Positions 1 through 6,475 of a stretch of DNA of 64,000 nucleotides are shown here, one piece after another. Source of the DNA: an uncultured Synergistaceae bacterium. Lineage in GTDB: Bacteria > Synergistota > Synergistia > Synergistales > Dethiosulfovibrionaceae. Below the pieces are notes generated by a model. That model was not told the DNA's origin and did not search any database. It worked only from the letters and a program-made list of their open reading frames with translations. Location of the stretch: assembly GCA_964604125.1 (NCBI GenBank), contig CAZRXR010000003.1, positions 2,593 through 66,592 on the forward strand, given 5' to 3'. The position numbers were made by a program, and so were the translations under genes. Numbering within the stretch: the first letter of the stretch is position 1; each line of letters begins with the position of its first letter.

Positions 1-510
1 GAGCGTCTTCAGCTCGCGCGCCTCGAACTCCGGCTTCAGCGTGAGGTAGGGATCGTCCCAGAGCGAAAAGCAGCCGAGGCGGATCATGCCGTCGCGCTGA
101 ATGTTCACATATTTGAGGGCGTAATCGTTACATTTGGCGCGCAGTTCGAGCGCCGGGGTCGTGTCTTTGTCGAGGCGCTCGTCCTTGAGGACTTTAAGCT
201 CGATGGGAAGCCCGTGTGTATCCCAGCCGGGAACGTAAGGCACGTAGTAGCCGCGCATGGATTTGTACTTGACGATGAAATCCTTCAGCGACTTGTTGAG
301 CGCGTGTCCGATATGGATGGCGCCGTTGGCGTAAGGAGGGCCGTCGTGGAACATGAAAGACTGCCCGCCCTTGTTTTTCTCAAGCATCTTGCGGTAAATT
401 TCGTTGTTCTCCCAGAACTTGACTGTCTCGGGCTCTTTTTTGGACAGGCCCGCCCTCATCGGGAACGACGTCTGGGGAAGATGGAGCGTCGATTTGTAAT
501 CGACCGGCAT
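1..510 (-). CDS. ileS: Isoleucyl-tRNA synthetase, N-terminal 170 codons (runs off window; not in ORF track)
   Basis: Manual translation MPVDYKSTLHLPQTSFPMRAGLSKKEPE...FHDGPPYANGAIHIGHALNK...PGWDTHGLPIE: HIGH motif and type-1 IleRS N-terminus; SD GAGGTG upstream. Confidence 0.96.
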   Translation of the reverse strand, partial: MPVDYKSTLHLPQTSFPMRAGLSKKEPETVKFWENNEIYRKMLEKNKGGQSFMFHDGPPYANGAIHIGHALNKSLKDFIVKYKSMRGYYVPYVPGWDTHGLPIELKVLKDERLDKDTTPALELRAKCNDYALKYVNIQRDGMIRLGCFSLWDDPYLTLKPEFEARELKTL

Positions 511-569
511 ACGGCGTCACCTCTCTGACAAATTTTGCCTTCGCTTGGGCAAGCGAACGTATCAAACCG

Positions 570-618
570 CGAAATAACAAACAGGGAGGCAAGAGCATAC
601 GCGCTCACCTCCCTGTTT
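570..618 (-). terminator. Attenuator terminator in the ileS leader
   Basis: Minus strand AAACAGGGAGG (618-608) pairs with CCTCCCTGTTT (589-579), inner GAGC/GCTC stem, followed by U-rich GTTATTT. Confidence 0.8.
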
Positions 619-633
619 TCAGCGCACGTCAAA

Positions 634-723
634 CTAGACCGTCGTCAGAGGGAGAGACCACGATGCGTCAGCCGCCGCTATAATAATGATTGTGCCGCCG
701 GAAAAAACGCGCGCCGCCCGCAT
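634..723 (-). CDS. Putative ileS leader (attenuator) peptide MRAARVFSGGTIIIIAAADASWSLPLTTV
   Basis: ATG at 723 with SD-like GGGGGTG; ATC ATT ATT ATA at 690-679; TAG at 636-634; lies between promoter and terminator. Confidence 0.8.
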   Translation of the reverse strand: MRAARVFSGGTIIIIAAADASWSLPLTTV

Positions 724-775
724 GTGTCCGCACCCCCTGTCCGAATGTGTTGTCGTGAACAAAAACCTAAGGCCG

Positions 776-804
776 ATTTTAACAGTATCGCGGCGTTCCG
801 TCAA
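776..804 (-). promoter_or_regulatory. sigma70-type promoter for leader plus ileS
   Basis: TTGACG (804-799), 17 nt, TAAAAT (781-776) with TGn extension. Confidence 0.75.
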
Positions 805-858
805 TCTTTTTGCCGATGAAAGATCGGTGAAAATACTTTTCGGCCCGGACGGTTCCGT

Positions 859-1245
859 TTAAGGGCGCTTCCGCTCCGGCACGTCGCGCGTGGCGACGAC
901 GCGGCACGGGACGCCCGCCGGTTTGTCGGCGACGAGATCGCCGATCCGCACGGGAGCGCGAAGAACAATGTTTCTCAAGCTTTCTCTGACGGCCCGGATC
1001 CGCGAAAGGGGGATGGCGTCGAGCGTGCGCACGCTGGCCACGGGCAGAGTGCCTCCGATAACGGCGACGTTCGTCGAAATTGTCCGCAGGGGATTTTCGA
1101 CTTCCTGCCGTGCCCACGACGCGCCGCGCGGGCACAGGTTGCCCGTGACGGAAAGAAAACGCGGCGTGCCGCCGCCGCCCGTTTCGACGCGCAGGGCGCA
1201 GCCGTTGGGACAGACGACGCAGGTGTACTCGCGGATTTCGCTCAT
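859..1245 (-). CDS. DUF1667-type small Cys-rich (CxxCPxGC...CPRG) protein, third subunit of flavoprotein module
   Basis: YTCVVCPNGC, GNLCPRG motifs; 4-nt overlap with upstream oxidoreductase. Confidence 0.8.
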   Translation of the reverse strand: MSEIREYTCVVCPNGCALRVETGGGGTPRFLSVTGNLCPRGASWARQEVENPLRTISTNVAVIGGTLPVASVRTLDAIPLSRIRAVRESLRNIVLRAPVRIGDLVADKPAGVPCRVVATRDVPERKRP

Positions 1246-2483
1246 TGTACCGACACCTCCAGTACGGAACAGTCGCGCAGGTCAGAGGCGCGCGCGGTCA
1301 GATGCTCCATGACGGCCGGATGGATCCTGACGCGCTTTTGGCGCGCGATTTCGCGGTTGTCAGCCGAGACGACGAGGTATCTGTCCCGACCGGGCGCGGC
1401 CGGGCGGAACGCGATCGAGATGTCTTTCCCGCCGCTGACTCGCGAGGGCACTGTGTAGCGCACCCCCGCCCCCGGGCGGACTTGGATTCGGCAGCGGGGG
1501 GCTTCGCGGCCGAGCGCCCATTCGGCGGCGCGACGCCCCGCTTCCGCGGCTTCCGTCGATACCCAGTCTACGAGATCGTGAACGTGGAGAGCGTTGCCGC
1601 AGGAGAAAATTCCCGGCGCGCCGGTCATGAAACTCTCATCGACGAACGCTCCGCCCGTGACCGGGTTGATCTCGATCCCGGCCATGCGCGTCAGCTCGTT
1701 TTCGGGGATCAGCCCCACCGACAGAAGCAGCGTGTCGCACTCGAAAATCCGCTCTGTGCCGGGGATGGGGCGGCGTCGTTCATCGACCCGCGAGACTTGG
1801 ACGGCCTCCAGCCGATCCGTGCCGATAATATCGGTGACGGTGGCGCCGAGATAAAGCGGGATGCCGTAGTCGCCGAGGCACTGCTGAATGTTGCGCGGCA
1901 GCCCGCTCGAGTACGGCAAAAGCTCAAAGACGGCTTTGACCTCGGCTCCTTCGAGCGTCATGCGCCGCGCCATGATGAGGCCGATGTCGCCCGATCCGAG
2001 GATACACACCTTCCTGCCAGGCATGAGGTTGCTCATGTTGACGAAATTCTGAGCGGCGCCGGCGGTATACACGCCCGAAGGGCGCGTGCCCGGGATCGAG
2101 AGCGCGCCGCGCGGGCGTTCGCGGCAGCCCATGGCCAGCACGACGGCGCCGGCTTTGAGGCGGAGCATTTCGCCGCGGCGGCTGACGAGGATCTCGCGCC
2201 GACCCGACAGGCGCAGAACCATCGACTCTGTCAGCGCCTCGAGGCCAAGTTCGTTGAAACGGTCGATGTCCCGCTTGGCGTATTCGGGGCCGCTCAGGGC
2301 CTCTCCGAAACGATGCAGTCCGAACCCGTCGTGAATACATTGGTTGAGGATACCGCCAAGCAATTTGTCGCGCTCGACGAGCACCACGTCGCGGCAGCCG
2401 GCTTCTCGAGCCGCGATCGCGGCGGCCAGCCCGGCCGGCCCGCCGCCGACGACGGCGACTTGGCAGGTTCTTTCGCGGATCAT
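1242..2483 (-). CDS. FAD/NAD(P)-dependent pyridine nucleotide-disulfide oxidoreductase
   Basis: GGGPAGLAAA FAD motif, GCRER, GSGDIGL, GIFSCGNALHVHDLVD. Confidence 0.85.
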   Translation of the reverse strand: MIRERTCQVAVVGGGPAGLAAAIAAREAGCRDVVLVERDKLLGGILNQCIHDGFGLHRFGEALSGPEYAKRDIDRFNELGLEALTESMVLRLSGRREILVSRRGEMLRLKAGAVVLAMGCRERPRGALSIPGTRPSGVYTAGAAQNFVNMSNLMPGRKVCILGSGDIGLIMARRMTLEGAEVKAVFELLPYSSGLPRNIQQCLGDYGIPLYLGATVTDIIGTDRLEAVQVSRVDERRRPIPGTERIFECDTLLLSVGLIPENELTRMAGIEINPVTGGAFVDESFMTGAPGIFSCGNALHVHDLVDWVSTEAAEAGRRAAEWALGREAPRCRIQVRPGAGVRYTVPSRVSGGKDISIAFRPAAPGRDRYLVVSADNREIARQKRVRIHPAVMEHLTARASDLRDCSVLEVSVQ

Positions 2484-3964
2484 CCCCGGTCACCTCCGCT
2501 CAAAACACAGCCGTCGAACATGCGGGATCCGGCGCTGTGATCGACAAAATCCACCCACTTCCAGCCGAACTCCTCGTAGAGCAGCCGCGCGATGCGCGGA
2601 ACGCAGAAACCGCCCTGACAGCGCCCCATCGACACGCGGGAGCGGTATTTCAGGCTCGCGAACGTTCGGGCCCCCAACGGGTTGTTCAGCGCGTCGAGCA
2701 CTTCGCGTCTGCTCACGGACTCGCAGCGGCAGATCATCTCCCCGTAGTCGGGGTCTTCGGCGATCAGTTCGGCCCGCTCCTCGGGGCCGAGTTCGCTCAA
2801 CGGGGCCGCGCCGCCGGAGCGCACGCCGTTAAAGCCTGGATTGGGCGCGAGGGCGACATGCTTCGCGACCATGTCGCGCGCCATCTCCGCGATGGCCGGC
2901 GAACTTGTCAGTCCCGGGCTTTCGATGCCTAAAATGTTGATGAAGCCGGGAACGTCCGCGCGATCCTCTATGACAAAGTCGGCGTTGCCGCCGACCCGGG
3001 GAGGCGTCTGTTTGGCGCGGAGTCCCGAAAAACTGCGGATGTAGTCGGACACGCGGATTTCGGGCAGCAGTTTCGCCCCCTCCTCTCTGAGCGAGGCCAT
3101 CGTGAGCGCCGTGTTCCCCGTCCAGCGGGGCGAATCCTGATAGTCGGCGCTCGGCCCGATGAGAATGTTCCCGTCAACCGTGGGCGTCAGGTGAATGCCG
3201 AGACCGGGGTTTTTTGGGTTGGGCGTGGGGTAGATCAGCGTGCGCAGCATGCCGTCGAGGCGCTTGTCGAGCACGTAATACTCTCCCCGGCACGGGTAGA
3301 TGCGATACTCGCGTATGCCGGCCATCTCGCAGACCTCCGCGGCGAACAGCCCCGCCGCGTTGACGAGAACCTTGGCGGCCAGAGTTTCGCCGCGGGCGTT
3401 TTTGACGCGGAAGCCGCGTTTTTCCGGCAAGACCTCGACACCGGCGACGGGCCAGTTCAGCAGGATCTCGGCGCCGTTGGCCTTCGCGTTTTCGGCGAGC
3501 GCGATCGTCAGCCCGTAGGGCGAGATGATCGCCGTACTGGGCGACCACAGAGCGGCGACGCCCCGCACGTCCGGCTGTATCATGCGCATCCGATCGGGGC
3601 CGACGATCTCGAGCCCCGGCGCGCCGTTGGCCTTGCCCTGCCCGTAAACGCGCTCCAGCCCGGGTATGTCGTCTTTGTCGAGGGCGACAGTCAGCTTGCC
3701 GAGACGCTTGATTTTCACCTTCAGGTCGCGGCACAGATCGTCCATCAGCGCGTTGCCGCGCACGGCGAGACGGGCGCGCAGCGTCCCCGGCTTGTAGTTG
3801 ATGCCCGAGTGCAGCACGCCGCTGTTGCGGCAGCTCGTGCCGAGGGAGACATCCATCTCGCGCTCGACCAGGCAGACGCTCGCCCGGAATTTTGAAAGTT
3901 CCCGGGCGATCGCGCAGCCGACCACGCCGCCGCCGACGATCACAACGTCGTAGGAAGTTCTCAT
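2480..3964 (-). CDS. FAD-dependent oxidoreductase (GlpA/LhgO-like) with C-terminal BFD-like [2Fe-2S] domain
   Basis: GGGVVG, TSCRNSGVLHSG, SPGLTSSPAIA, ICRCE...MGRCQGGFC. Confidence 0.85.
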   Translation of the reverse strand: MRTSYDVVIVGGGVVGCAIARELSKFRASVCLVEREMDVSLGTSCRNSGVLHSGINYKPGTLRARLAVRGNALMDDLCRDLKVKIKRLGKLTVALDKDDIPGLERVYGQGKANGAPGLEIVGPDRMRMIQPDVRGVAALWSPSTAIISPYGLTIALAENAKANGAEILLNWPVAGVEVLPEKRGFRVKNARGETLAAKVLVNAAGLFAAEVCEMAGIREYRIYPCRGEYYVLDKRLDGMLRTLIYPTPNPKNPGLGIHLTPTVDGNILIGPSADYQDSPRWTGNTALTMASLREEGAKLLPEIRVSDYIRSFSGLRAKQTPPRVGGNADFVIEDRADVPGFINILGIESPGLTSSPAIAEMARDMVAKHVALAPNPGFNGVRSGGAAPLSELGPEERAELIAEDPDYGEMICRCESVSRREVLDALNNPLGARTFASLKYRSRVSMGRCQGGFCVPRIARLLYEEFGWKWVDFVDHSAGSRMFDGCVLSGGDRG

Positions 3965-5185: not shown

Positions 5186-6475
5186 TTAAAACCGCGAAAA
5201 AATTTCGTCCACGAACCTGAAATAATAATCGTTTGTGAAAAGCCGCGTCAGTTCCTCTCCGCCGATCCTGCCGCGAACGAGTTCGTCCTCGCAGAGCAGG
5301 TCGAGGAAGCGCCCTTCGCCGGCCCACGTTTTCATCGCGTTGCGCTGCACGGCGAGATACGCGTCTTCACGTTTCATGCCGAACTTTTCGACGAGTTCGA
5401 GCAGTACTCTTTGACTATATACGAGACCTCCCGTAATTTCAAGATTTTCTTTTAATTTGTCCACGGAAACGTCGAGACCCCGCACCACGCGGTCAAGTGT
5501 GCGGATCATGTAGTGGCAGAGATGGAACCCGTCGGGCCAGATGACGCGCTCCGTGCACGAATGGCTGATGTCGCGCTCGTGCCAGAGCGCGACGTTCTCC
5601 AGCGCCACGATGGTGAACGAACGCAGCATACGCGCCATGCCGCAGATTTTTTCGCACTGGATGGGGTTTCTCTTGTGAGGCATAGCCGAGGAGCCTTTTT
5701 GCTTTTTGCCGAACGGTTCTAGCGCCTCGCGCACCTCCGTGCGCTGCAGATGGCGTATCTCGGTGGCGATACGCTCCATTGTCCCGCCCAGACTGGCGAG
5801 CGCGAACATGACGACGGCGTGGCGGTCGCGCTGGATGATCTGTGTGGAGACGGGGTCGGGCTTCAGGCCGAGTTCCTCGCAGACGGACGCCTCGATGCTC
5901 GGGGGGCAGTGGGCGTAAGTCCCCACGGCGCCCGAGATCTTTCCGCAGGAGATTTCCTCCAGGGCCAGTTCGAGGCGTTTGCGGTCGCGCGCAAGCTCGG
6001 AATACCAGTTCAGTATCTTCAGCCCGAACGTGATCGGCTCGGCGTGGACGCCGTGGCTGCGGCCGACCGCGGGCGTGTACTTGTACTTCCGCGCCTGCTC
6101 CATCACATCGCCCATAAACGTGTCCAGTTCGCGCAGGATGACCCGCAGCGACTCTCTGATGCGCAGCGCGCTGGCCGTGTCTTCCACGTCGCTGCTTGTC
6201 AAGCCGAGGTGGATGTAGCGCCCCTCCGGCCCCACGTGATCGGCCATGTTTGTGTCGAAGGCGATCATGTCGTGCTTGACTTCGGCCTCGATCCTGAGAA
6301 TCTCGTCCGGGTCGAAACCGCTGCGCTCGTCGATCGCTTTCATCGCCTCGGGAGGGATGACGCCCGCTTTCGCCCAGGCGTGGCAGACGGCCAACTCGAC
6401 AGTTTCCCAGCTGCGGTACTGGTTTTCAAGCGACCAGATTTCCTTCATCTCTTTGGTTTCATAACGCTCAATCAT
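5186..6475 (-). CDS. purB: Adenylosuccinate lyase
   Basis: GLTSSDV, GRSHGVHAEP, GSSAMPHKRNP signature. Confidence 0.96.
   Translation of the reverse strand: MIERYETKEMKEIWSLENQYRSWETVELAVCHAWAKAGVIPPEAMKAIDERSGFDPDEILRIEAEVKHDMIAFDTNMADHVGPEGRYIHLGLTSSDVEDTASALRIRESLRVILRELDTFMGDVMEQARKYKYTPAVGRSHGVHAEPITFGLKILNWYSELARDRKRLELALEEISCGKISGAVGTYAHCPPSIEASVCEELGLKPDPVSTQIIQRDRHAVVMFALASLGGTMERIATEIRHLQRTEVREALEPFGKKQKGSSAMPHKRNPIQCEKICGMARMLRSFTIVALENVALWHERDISHSCTERVIWPDGFHLCHYMIRTLDRVVRGLDVSVDKLKENLEITGGLVYSQRVLLELVEKFGMKREDAYLAVQRNAMKTWAGEGRFLDLLCEDELVRGRIGGEELTRLFTNDYYFRFVDEIFSRF
5414..5442 (-). promoter_or_regulatory. Putative internal sigma70 promoter within purB, pointing to glpX
   Basis: TTGAAA (5442-5437), 17 nt, TATAGT (5419-5414) inside a local AT-rich codon patch. 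Confidence 0.5.

Follow-up and report, generated by a model that had tools for sequence, protein, structure and literature searches.

The 64-kb window analysed here (64,000 nucleotides of contig CAZRXR010000003.1, from an uncultured Synergistaceae bacterium) carries at one edge, on the minus strand, the 5' part of ileS, the gene for isoleucine–tRNA ligase (IleRS). The ileS leader (570-804) acts, with a probability of about 0.8, as a ribosome-mediated (leader-peptide) transcription attenuator tuning ileS to the supply of charged tRNA-Ile, a reading that draws on comparative sequence analysis and RNA folding models. The leader combines a promoter, a short open reading frame (ORF) with a run of isoleucine codons and a terminator hairpin whose 5' arm may pair instead with a strand inside the ORF. 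The original prediction, made from the letters of the window, had proposed a classical Ile leader peptide with mutually exclusive terminator and antiterminator at ileS, and this proposal has strong comparative support in 14 leaders and in the co-variation of their pairing segments. The principle is already published; what appears to be new is leader-peptide attenuation at ileS and in the Synergistota.

Leaders upstream of ileS in Dethiosulfovibrionaceae

The comparison comprises 14 distinct ileS leaders, the window counted, from the family Dethiosulfovibrionaceae (Pyramidobacter-like contigs, Jonquetella anthropi and further relatives), which were reached by three routes. A search with the 170-aa IleS fragment returned four short contigs with IleS fragments 77-85% identical to that of the window. 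A metagenome pattern set on the ASWSLPL codons, in which the Ile run was left free to vary, returned 11 true relatives, all with the Ile run, and 5 chance matches. A full-length IleS query combined with contig look-ups led to Jonquetella and other distant loci, comprising Jonquetella anthropi L104, whose IleS is 63% identical to the L094 query, L102 (67%), L103 (66%) and L105 (64%). The leader is always positioned directly 5' of ileS while the upstream genes vary, including a glp-like cluster, ribF with a tRNA, a hexapeptide transferase, an ornithine carbamoyltransferase (OTCase) and an Fe-hydrogenase-like gene. Thus, the leader travels with ileS. The leader peptides of the relatives are MRCHEWLHSIIIIAASDASWSLPLTTV (L081), MHPVRNRVESPIIIAAVRASWSLPLTTL (L082), VCSVGLKKSIISIIIAAAGASWSLPLTTV (L083), MYAAECQYKGVIIIIAAADASCSLPLATL (L084), MYAAESQCKGVIIIMAVAGASCSLPLATL (L085), MYAAERQYKGVIIIIAAADASCSLPLTTL (L086), MRSVCSFFAVNIIIAAALASWSLPLTTV (L091), MHALCSLYVLAGIIIAANHASWSLPLTTV (L094), MQAVMLKKSEQGIIIAAAFASWSLPLTTV (L100), MEAYSCFSYWAVIIAAIVISWSLPLATS (L102), MGTCSGVSGRIIISAVLVSWSLPLATS (L103), MRQNRRFGIIIDGVSRSLSW (L104) and VLAICEIIIIEQSRSLSW (L105).

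Promoter, leader ORF and isoleucine codons

The promoter of the leader (776-804, minus strand, as are all leader features below) is composed of the -35 element TTGACG (804-799), a 17-nt spacer and the extended -10 element TGT-TAAAAT (784-776), with the TG at 784-783 and TAAAAT at 781-776. With 10/12 positions plus the TG, it is the sole sigma-70-like site in window positions 1-1400, where 0.3 are expected from shuffles, and the same scan finds no further promoter-like site between the leader and ileS. Transcription would start at approximately 770-767. The pattern TTGAC[GC]-N17-TGnTA[AG]AAT is kept in all 13 relatives whose contig extends to the promoter. Downstream, the Shine-Dalgarno (SD) sequence GGGGGTG (731-737) is located 7 nt 5' of the ATG of the leader ORF (634-723; ATG 723, TAG 636-634), which has 29 codons plus the stop (MRAARVFSGGTIIIIAAADASWSLPLTTV). 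Similarly, GGAGG or GGGGG is found no more than 18 nt 5' of the start codon in 14/14 leaders, and the reading frame is open in 14/14 (18-29 codons) while its N-terminal codons are unrelated and the other two frames mostly contain stops. The promoter TTGACG-17-TAAAAT (804-776), the SD GGGGGTG, the 29-aa ORF (723-634), the Ile codons (690-679) and the ileS ATG (510) all lie exactly where the original prediction had placed them.

The ORF contains the consecutive Ile codons ATC ATT ATT ATA (679-690), the proposed ribosome stall site. The poly-Ile ORF suggested by the window is kept in all 13 other distinct ileS leaders, with 3-5 Ile codons per leader that are adjacent in 13/14, the exception being L102 with the arrangement II-AA-I-V-I. 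Ile is the only residue repeated across the leader peptides, and at the 6% Ile of the window genes the probability of at least three consecutive Ile in a 28-aa peptide is ~0.005. Genes of the window use ATC 249 times, ATT 34 times and ATA 13 times, ATT and ATA thus making up 16% of their Ile codons, whereas these two codons account for 45/51 in the 14 leaders. The regulatory codons are therefore the rare ones, in agreement with the rarity originally pointed out for ATA. An AUA codon is found in 12/14 leaders and closes the Ile run in 10. Both strands of the 64 kb were also scanned for short ORFs (10-45 codons) that follow an SD and repeat one residue (I, L, V, T, H, F, W, C, M or Y) three times in a row. 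Of the seven such ORFs, the ileS leader alone precedes a hairpin and U-tract more stable than -12 kcal/mol. At the start of the leader ORF (707-723, minus strand), a small GC hairpin with UUUUUU behind it is terminator-like in a simple scan; it is conserved in no relative and is probably a product of chance.

Predicted terminator and antiterminator

The predicted intrinsic terminator hairpin (579-618) is formed by arm B AAACAGGGAGG (618-608), an apical stem-loop (607-590) and arm C CCUCCCUGUUU (589-579). Its predicted stability is -27.0 kcal/mol in the window and ranges from -22.6 to -33.6 kcal/mol over 14/14 leaders, with compensatory changes in 4/13 consensus terminator pairs. The U-rich tract UUUGUUAUUUC (571-581), partly inside the stem base, is the proposed site of premature termination, and every relative has a U-rich tail 3' of its hairpin, such as UUUUUUGUUU in L104. 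The antiterminator 5' strand ('segment 2', 646-666) reads GCAUCGUG-G-UCUCUCCCUCUG and contains segment A (655-649). It starts 12 nt past the last Ile codon in the window and 9-12 nt past it across the leaders, and overlaps or precedes the stop codon. The three segments correspond to those originally delineated, namely A TCTCCCT (655-649), B AAACAGGGAGG (618-608) and C CCTCCCTGTTT (589-579), followed by GTTATTTC.

Antiterminator folds were computed sequence by sequence on the RNA extending from 12 nt past the last Ile codon to just before the 3' terminator arm. In the window the alternative fold joins 666-659 to 603-595 and 657-647 to 618-608, with a predicted energy of -28.0 kcal/mol vs -27.0 kcal/mol for the terminator alone. 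The distal helix is established between GCAUCGUG (666-659) and CGCGUAUGC (603-595), which is the CGCG(A)UGC of the terminator apical part, while in most relatives, as in the window, (A)CAGGGAGG(A) is the partner of the pyrimidine tract UCUCU(C/U)CC(U/C)CUG. In Pyramidobacter-type leaders the alternative fold reaches -24 to -34 kcal/mol, comparable to the terminator. The distal helix is missing in L083 and weaker in the L084 group, and is rebuilt with other bases in L102 (UCUCGU:ACGAGA) and L103 (GGUCUCG:CGAGGCC). Of the 7-bp A:B antiterminator first put forward, the A:B pairing stands but the size does not, as the pairing extends to 666-659 with 603-595 and A also pairs with the leader SD.

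In minimum free energy (MFE) folds of the whole, ribosome-free leader the terminator forms in 13/13 and the pairing of the leader SD with pyrimidine tract A in 12/13. The co-existence of SD:A pairing and terminator in these folds points to the classical four-segment layout, in which the leader SD would be segment 1, A segment 2, B segment 3 and C segment 4, with SD:A as the 1:2 helix.

Co-variation of the pairing segments

The original prediction looked to co-varying A, B and C stems, and it is in Jonquetella L104 and in L105 that the three segments are seen to change together. In Jonquetella anthropi L104 arm B is AGAGAGCG(GGA) instead of CAGGGAGG, while arm C and strand A both read CGCUCUCU; L105 is intermediate, with B ACAGGGAGAGCG, C CGCUCUCCCUGU and A CGCUCCCU. 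At the level of sequence comparison, this three-segment co-variation in Jonquetella would be the decisive observation. The A:B core of L104 is matched by 1/500 shuffles of the upstream strand. When the apical arm is included, no more than 19/500 shuffles are as good in 7/15 sequences, and 42/500 in an eighth (L100). In addition, exchanging upstream strands and B arms between sequences gives -23.0 kcal/mol for cognate vs -21.1 kcal/mol for non-cognate combinations, with a permutation p of ~0.0004 that is inflated by sequence relatedness. These per-sequence folds, shuffles and swaps were used to evaluate the antiterminator instead of counting pairs in an alignment, which was dropped because MAFFT shifts the window arm B by one column and the distal helix is in another register in L102 and L103.

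The leader ORF could also be viewed as an independent small-protein gene with its own terminator, encoding a hydrophobic peptide that ends in ASWSLPLTTV and in which the Ile run is a hydrophobic segment. The conserved C-terminus of the peptide in the Pyramidobacter type (12-14 residues), where variation often falls on the third base of a codon (ctc/ctt, cct/ccc, gcg/gca, gac/gat), as it does at several sites, lends this view some weight, although the remaining observations make it very unlikely. The N-terminus is unconstrained, the element always accompanies ileS regardless of the upstream gene, no separate ileS promoter is seen, and rare Ile codons would make sense at a stall site but not in an expressed protein. 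The ORFs of L104 and L105 end directly after segment A, with the peptide termini ..IIIDGVSRSLSW (Jonquetella) and ..IIIIEQSRSLSW (L105), so that the peptide differs in these two while the RNA logic persists. The block CUCUGACGACG (640-650) is coding in the window and non-coding in Jonquetella-type leaders; in the form CUCUG(A/G)CGACG it is retained 3' of the stop codon in Jonquetella and L105, which places at least part of the constraint on the nucleic acid. A stand-alone small protein was thus rejected, the peptide being not conserved in Jonquetella and the RNA logic conserved. Under leader-peptide attenuation the early ORF stop in L104 and L105 appears to preserve the same masking logic with a shorter peptide.

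In most relatives the block at 640-650 supplies the 5' side of a small hairpin (ACGAC..GUCGU), and both CUCUGACGACG and UCGUGG (658-663, minus strand) are conserved at the nucleotide level in all groups, although in Jonquetella and L105 UCGUGG is located on the opposite side of segment A. The block may be where RNA polymerase pauses, or it may contribute to a hairpin that covers the stop codon.

Predicted mechanism of attenuation

Transcription would begin at the conserved promoter, and a ribosome would load at the leader SD and translate the short ORF as RNA polymerase advances. When Ile-tRNA-Ile is scarce, through low isoleucine or low IleRS activity, the ribosome would stall at the rare AUU/AUA run (690-679). 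The front edge of the stalled ribosome would reach ~10 nt beyond the A-site codon, so that the strand GCAUCGUG-UCUCUCCCUCUG (666-646) would stay free and could pair with 618-595, the 5' arm and apex of the terminator, while the 3' arm is still to be transcribed. Once paired, the antiterminator would prevent the terminator from forming and the polymerase would read into ileS. When Ile-tRNA is plentiful, the ribosome would proceed to the stop codon (636-634) and mask the strand, B would pair with C, and transcription would terminate near the U-tract at 578-571. Without translation the leader SD would pair with the pyrimidine tract and the terminator would form, the default state thus being off. 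The stalling, its timing, the termination and the isoleucine response of the leader are all predicted properties of this model.

The spacing of the elements was compared with the dimensions of the ribosome, whose toeprint is found ~15-17 nt 3' of the first base of the P-site codon. A ribosome with AUA (681-679) in its A site would protect the RNA to about 670-668, just short of the antiterminator strand, which starts at 666. Once UAG has entered the A site, it would cover roughly 654-623, including the 3' half of segment A and not arm B (618-608).

Transcripts of a relative are available as assembled metatranscriptome contigs. In L094, from rumen, contigs of five runs cover the leader and the terminator and reach into ileS, which indicates co-transcription and read-through. 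In two runs the contigs start 24-51 nt 3' of the predicted start, and the promoter is not covered.

Several observations weigh against attenuation as outlined here. The RNA support consists of assembled contigs, which cannot reveal premature 3' ends or regulation; in the runs of L089 and L094 the depth is flat. The window's own U-tract is interrupted (UUUGUUAUUU), and the conserved CUCUGACGACG and UCGUGG are unaccounted for by the attenuation model. In the Pyramidobacter type the 7-bp A:B core is matched by 47-143/500 composition-preserving shuffles, because the upstream strand is pyrimidine-rich, and L083, the L084 group, L103 and L105 have a weak distal helix or none. Finally, the relatives are mostly close kin and the independent co-variation events few (roughly 4 groups).

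The attenuator may also be more than a plain counter of Ile codons, although this is rather unlikely. AUA is decoded solely by the minor, lysidine-modified tRNA-Ile2, and the AUA codon could let ileS report specifically the charging of tRNA-Ile2 or its modification by TilS. UCGUGG and CUCUGACGACG, for their part, could act as a programmed RNA polymerase pause or as a protein or ribosome contact site, synchronising transcription with the leader ribosome. If true, tRNA-Ile2 sensing or synchronising blocks would be a feature undescribed for classical attenuators.

A second hairpin and possible alternative outputs

A second hairpin, UUCGCUU-GCCC-AAGCGAA (540-557, minus strand), is positioned between the terminator and the ileS SD. 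Hairpins of differing sequence occupy this position in 12 relatives (UCCGC/GCGGA, CUGCC/GGCGG, CCGCU/AGCGG, UUCGCC/GGCGAA) and none is present in L104 and L105. RNAalifold on the MAFFT alignment gives no consensus for the second hairpin, a result attributed to the alignment. This hairpin could have a role in mRNA stability or processing, or serve as a protein site.

It is unlikely, but worth weighing, that the Ile-rich upstream ORF regulates ileS through an output other than intrinsic termination, such as Rho-dependent termination or polarity, altered mRNA stability, or control of ileS translation by way of the SD-like and anti-SD-like segments and the second hairpin; the terminator-like hairpin with its U-tract would then have a role in structure or processing. 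Each of the segments resembles an SD (GGGAGG) or an anti-SD (CCUCCC) and could contact the ileS SD GAGAGGUGA or 16S rRNA. The second conserved hairpin just 5' of the ileS SD, which attenuation leaves unexplained, the metatranscriptome contigs that traverse the terminator and the break in the window's U-tract point in the same direction. However, in most relatives, and above all in L084, L104 and L105, hairpin and U-tract together have the look of a canonical intrinsic terminator. The terminator 3' arm, 38-85 nt 5' of the ileS start, is unpaired with the ileS SD in the window MFE fold, and Jonquetella-type leaders are without the second hairpin yet retain the A/B/C logic.

T-box and other RNA families

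The original prediction described the leader as having no T-box, and an Rfam search of window positions 400-1000 bears this out, the T-box model (RF00230) giving no match at E up to 10. Over the full 64 kb no Rfam family attains its gathering score, tRNAs, riboswitches and small RNAs included, and no T-box or other Rfam family does so in the 13 leader-bearing relatives, nor does a T-box in 5 further Synergistota loci without the leader. Among 4227 Rfam families none matches the leader at E <=0.1; ar35, mir-1976 and mir-4788 give sub-threshold matches (E 0.16 to 6.3) that involve the hairpin only, the ar35 match scoring 20 bits against a gathering score of 45. As a control, the same search recovers ileS T-boxes in 6/20 of the IleS-nearest genomes of the Genome Taxonomy Database (GTDB), among the matches listed, all of them Firmicutes, which shows that the T-box search works.

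These results also bear on a reading in which the leader RNA binds a ligand, a tRNA or a protein, as a riboswitch, a degenerate T-box or an autoregulatory site for IleRS would, and in which the ORF is incidental. Strong nucleotide conservation extends over ~45 nt, including UCGUGG and CUGACGACG, and is unexplained by attenuation, and GCAUCGUGGUC contains UGGU, which in T-boxes is the bulge motif that matches a tRNA whose discriminator base is A. Such a reading is nevertheless highly improbable, given the lack of Rfam matches at the leader and the change of UGGU to UGUU in the L084 group. The T-box version was rejected on these two grounds, the absence of a model match and the non-conservation of UGGU. 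In addition, 14/14 leaders retain an SD and a start codon in the frame of the Ile run despite unrelated upstream codons, which an untranslated RNA would not need, and the Ile run is the only element besides the helices that is common to all groups.

Outgroup loci were collected by a GTDB scan with the IleS N-terminus and share, among the matches listed, ~60% identity or less. In Synergistota without the leader, no T-box is found at ileS in Dethiosulfovibrio salsuginis (L107), Thermovirga lienii (L108), L106 and the Synergistaceae metagenome-assembled genomes (MAGs) L001, L010, L013, L014 and L034. Since these leaderless relatives are also without a T-box, there is no sign that a T-box was replaced, and the original statement that the leader "replaces the T-box", drawn from Firmicutes and Actinobacteria rather than from Synergistota, is unsupported. 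The T-box and the Ile leader at ileS appear to be functional analogues only, with nothing to indicate T-box displacement, and the leader is thus a clade-specific invention within Dethiosulfovibrionaceae.

Other arrangements are observed at the outgroup loci. In L001, L010, L013, L014, L106, L107 and L108, and not in L034, ileS is located behind a dctM/TRAP permease gene. The dctM-ileS spacer (~100 nt 5' of ileS) contains TGTTAGAAT or TATAT as a -10-like element and, next to the SD, a GC hairpin such as GCCGUCUC..GAGACGGC with UUUUCC behind it. These dctM-linked loci carry a different conserved ileS 5' element, without a T-box. In Ruminococcus L002, L003, L006, L009, L015 and L041 the ileS SD is enclosed in a hairpin, GGAGGAUC(C/U)CUC...GAG(G/A)GAUC, within the last ~60 nt, directly after a divIVA-like gene. 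No T-box at the Rfam gathering score is found in L002, L003 and L006, the Ruminococcus loci scanned, and the SD hairpin may be a translational control element. Matches to 'III' in Ruminococcus, retrieved by a regular-expression scan of 80 outgroup ileS loci, were rejected as leaders, being out-of-frame read-through of the upstream divIVA-like gene.

ileS and its genomic surroundings

The ileS portion of the window (1-510, minus strand, ATG 510) comprises the first 170 codons, with the remainder beyond the window edge, and its product matches Pfam PF00133 and PF09334. The ileS SD GAGAGGUGA (517-525, minus strand) was read from the sequence, and its GAGGTGA is unchanged across 11 Pyramidobacter-type leaders. 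The IleS fragment is 77-89% identical to the IleS of the leader-bearing relatives. The window has a G+C content of 62%, and its TypA is 93% identical to that of Pyramidobacter MAGs and 89% to those of P. porci and other named isolates, Pyramidobacter being placed by taxonomy in Dethiosulfovibrionaceae, Synergistota. The leader thus belongs to neither a Firmicute nor an Actinobacterium. The DNA runs that contain the window sequence are faeces metagenomes, and no RNA run was found to contain it.

A three-gene cluster (859-3964, minus strand) is located 5' of the leader and consists of a FAD enzyme resembling GlpA or type-2 glycerol-3-phosphate oxidase (2480-3964), an NAD(P)/FAD oxidoreductase (1242-2483) and a small Cys-rich protein without an NCBIfam match (859-1245). 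It is followed by glpX-like and purB genes, and is unlinked to the leader in relatives. The segment 807-833 has a terminator score, in a simple scan, for the plus strand only. In L089, positions 6222-6282, 5' of the leader, reach a word depth of ~6400 vs ~125 in the flanks (run X4) and coincide with many contig ends, suggesting a highly repeated element in the genome or community.

Comparison with known systems

A close relative in design is the attenuator of E. coli pheST, with the leader peptide pheM and its Phe codons. Like pheM/pheST, the ileS leader has a short ORF that clusters codons for the amino acid charged by the downstream synthetase, and an intrinsic terminator under alternative pairing, such that charged tRNA would be sensed and the synthetase induced when its own product is limiting. 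The two differ in amino acid and lineage, Phe in Gammaproteobacteria as opposed to Ile in Synergistota, and share no sequence similarity; moreover, in the ileS leader the SD appears to be segment 1 and the antiterminator to extend into the terminator apical loop. The regulatory codons of leuL are the rare CUA. E. coli ilvL/ilvBN and leuL similarly present runs of Ile, Val or Leu codons to a stalling ribosome, with rare synonymous codons and 1:2, 2:3 and 3:4 segments. In contrast, these leaders precede biosynthetic operons and sense several amino acids, whereas the ileS leader precedes a synthetase gene and would sense Ile only.

In Firmicutes the ileS T-box is transcriptional. It shares with the present leader the gene, the logic of raising ileS when tRNA-Ile is uncharged and a terminator/antiterminator pair in the 5' leader. 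The T-box, however, binds uncharged tRNA directly, through specifier codon and bulge and with no translation, while here a translated ORF would be the sensor. In Actinobacteria the ileS T-box is translational, and the same source cites pheST as an example of a leader-peptide-controlled synthetase (PMC1262725).

Further synthetase leaders have been predicted in other lineages. The uORFC-8-2 motif 5' of cysS in Rhodobacterales is a predicted attenuator (Brewer et al. 2021, PMC8632094), and in Deinococcus deserti leaders are predicted at cysS (Cys-containing) and other synthetase genes (de Groot et al. 2014, PMC4007540). Both cysS cases resemble the ileS leader as predicted ribosome-mediated synthetase attenuators in which cognate codons of an upstream ORF are followed by a terminator, and differ in amino acid, gene and lineage; the Deinococcus leaders, in addition, are on leaderless mRNAs, in contrast to the strong SD of the ileS leader. 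For bacilli, His leader peptides are predicted at hisS paralogues, in work that also describes switching from one device to the other, T-box or leader peptide (Naville and Gautheret 2010, PMC2965389). It documents that control of a gene family can rest with either device depending on the lineage, but the cases are from Firmicutes and Proteobacteria, not Synergistota, and ileS is unmentioned (0 occurrences) in that paper (PMC2965389). In the full-text literature no Ile leader at ileS and no attenuator in Synergistota was found, Lopatovskaya et al. 2010 (PMID 20198868) and Table S9 of de Groot 2014 (14 leaders), either of which might list an ileS leader in another phylum, being outside its coverage. 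The original remark that no description of such a leader was known agrees with the literature as far as ileS is concerned, the principle itself being published.

Significance

The ileS leader opens no new mechanism. If true, it would represent a second solution at ileS, in which one Synergistota clade controls the gene by tRNA-Ile charging via a translated leader, vs the T-boxes of Firmicutes and Actinobacteria. To our knowledge, almost nothing is known about RNA-based regulation in Synergistota. The leader would add a clean case to the leader-attenuated synthetase genes (pheST, cysS, hisS paralogues), with unrelated sensors converging on the same gene and signal. For annotation, the so far unannotated ORF of 18-29 codons with its terminator 5' of ileS in Pyramidobacter and Jonquetella would be labelled a leader, not a hypothetical protein or the end of an operon. 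For these anaerobes of gut and mouth, the model predicts ileS induction when isoleucine is limiting or when an IleRS inhibitor such as mupirocin is present.

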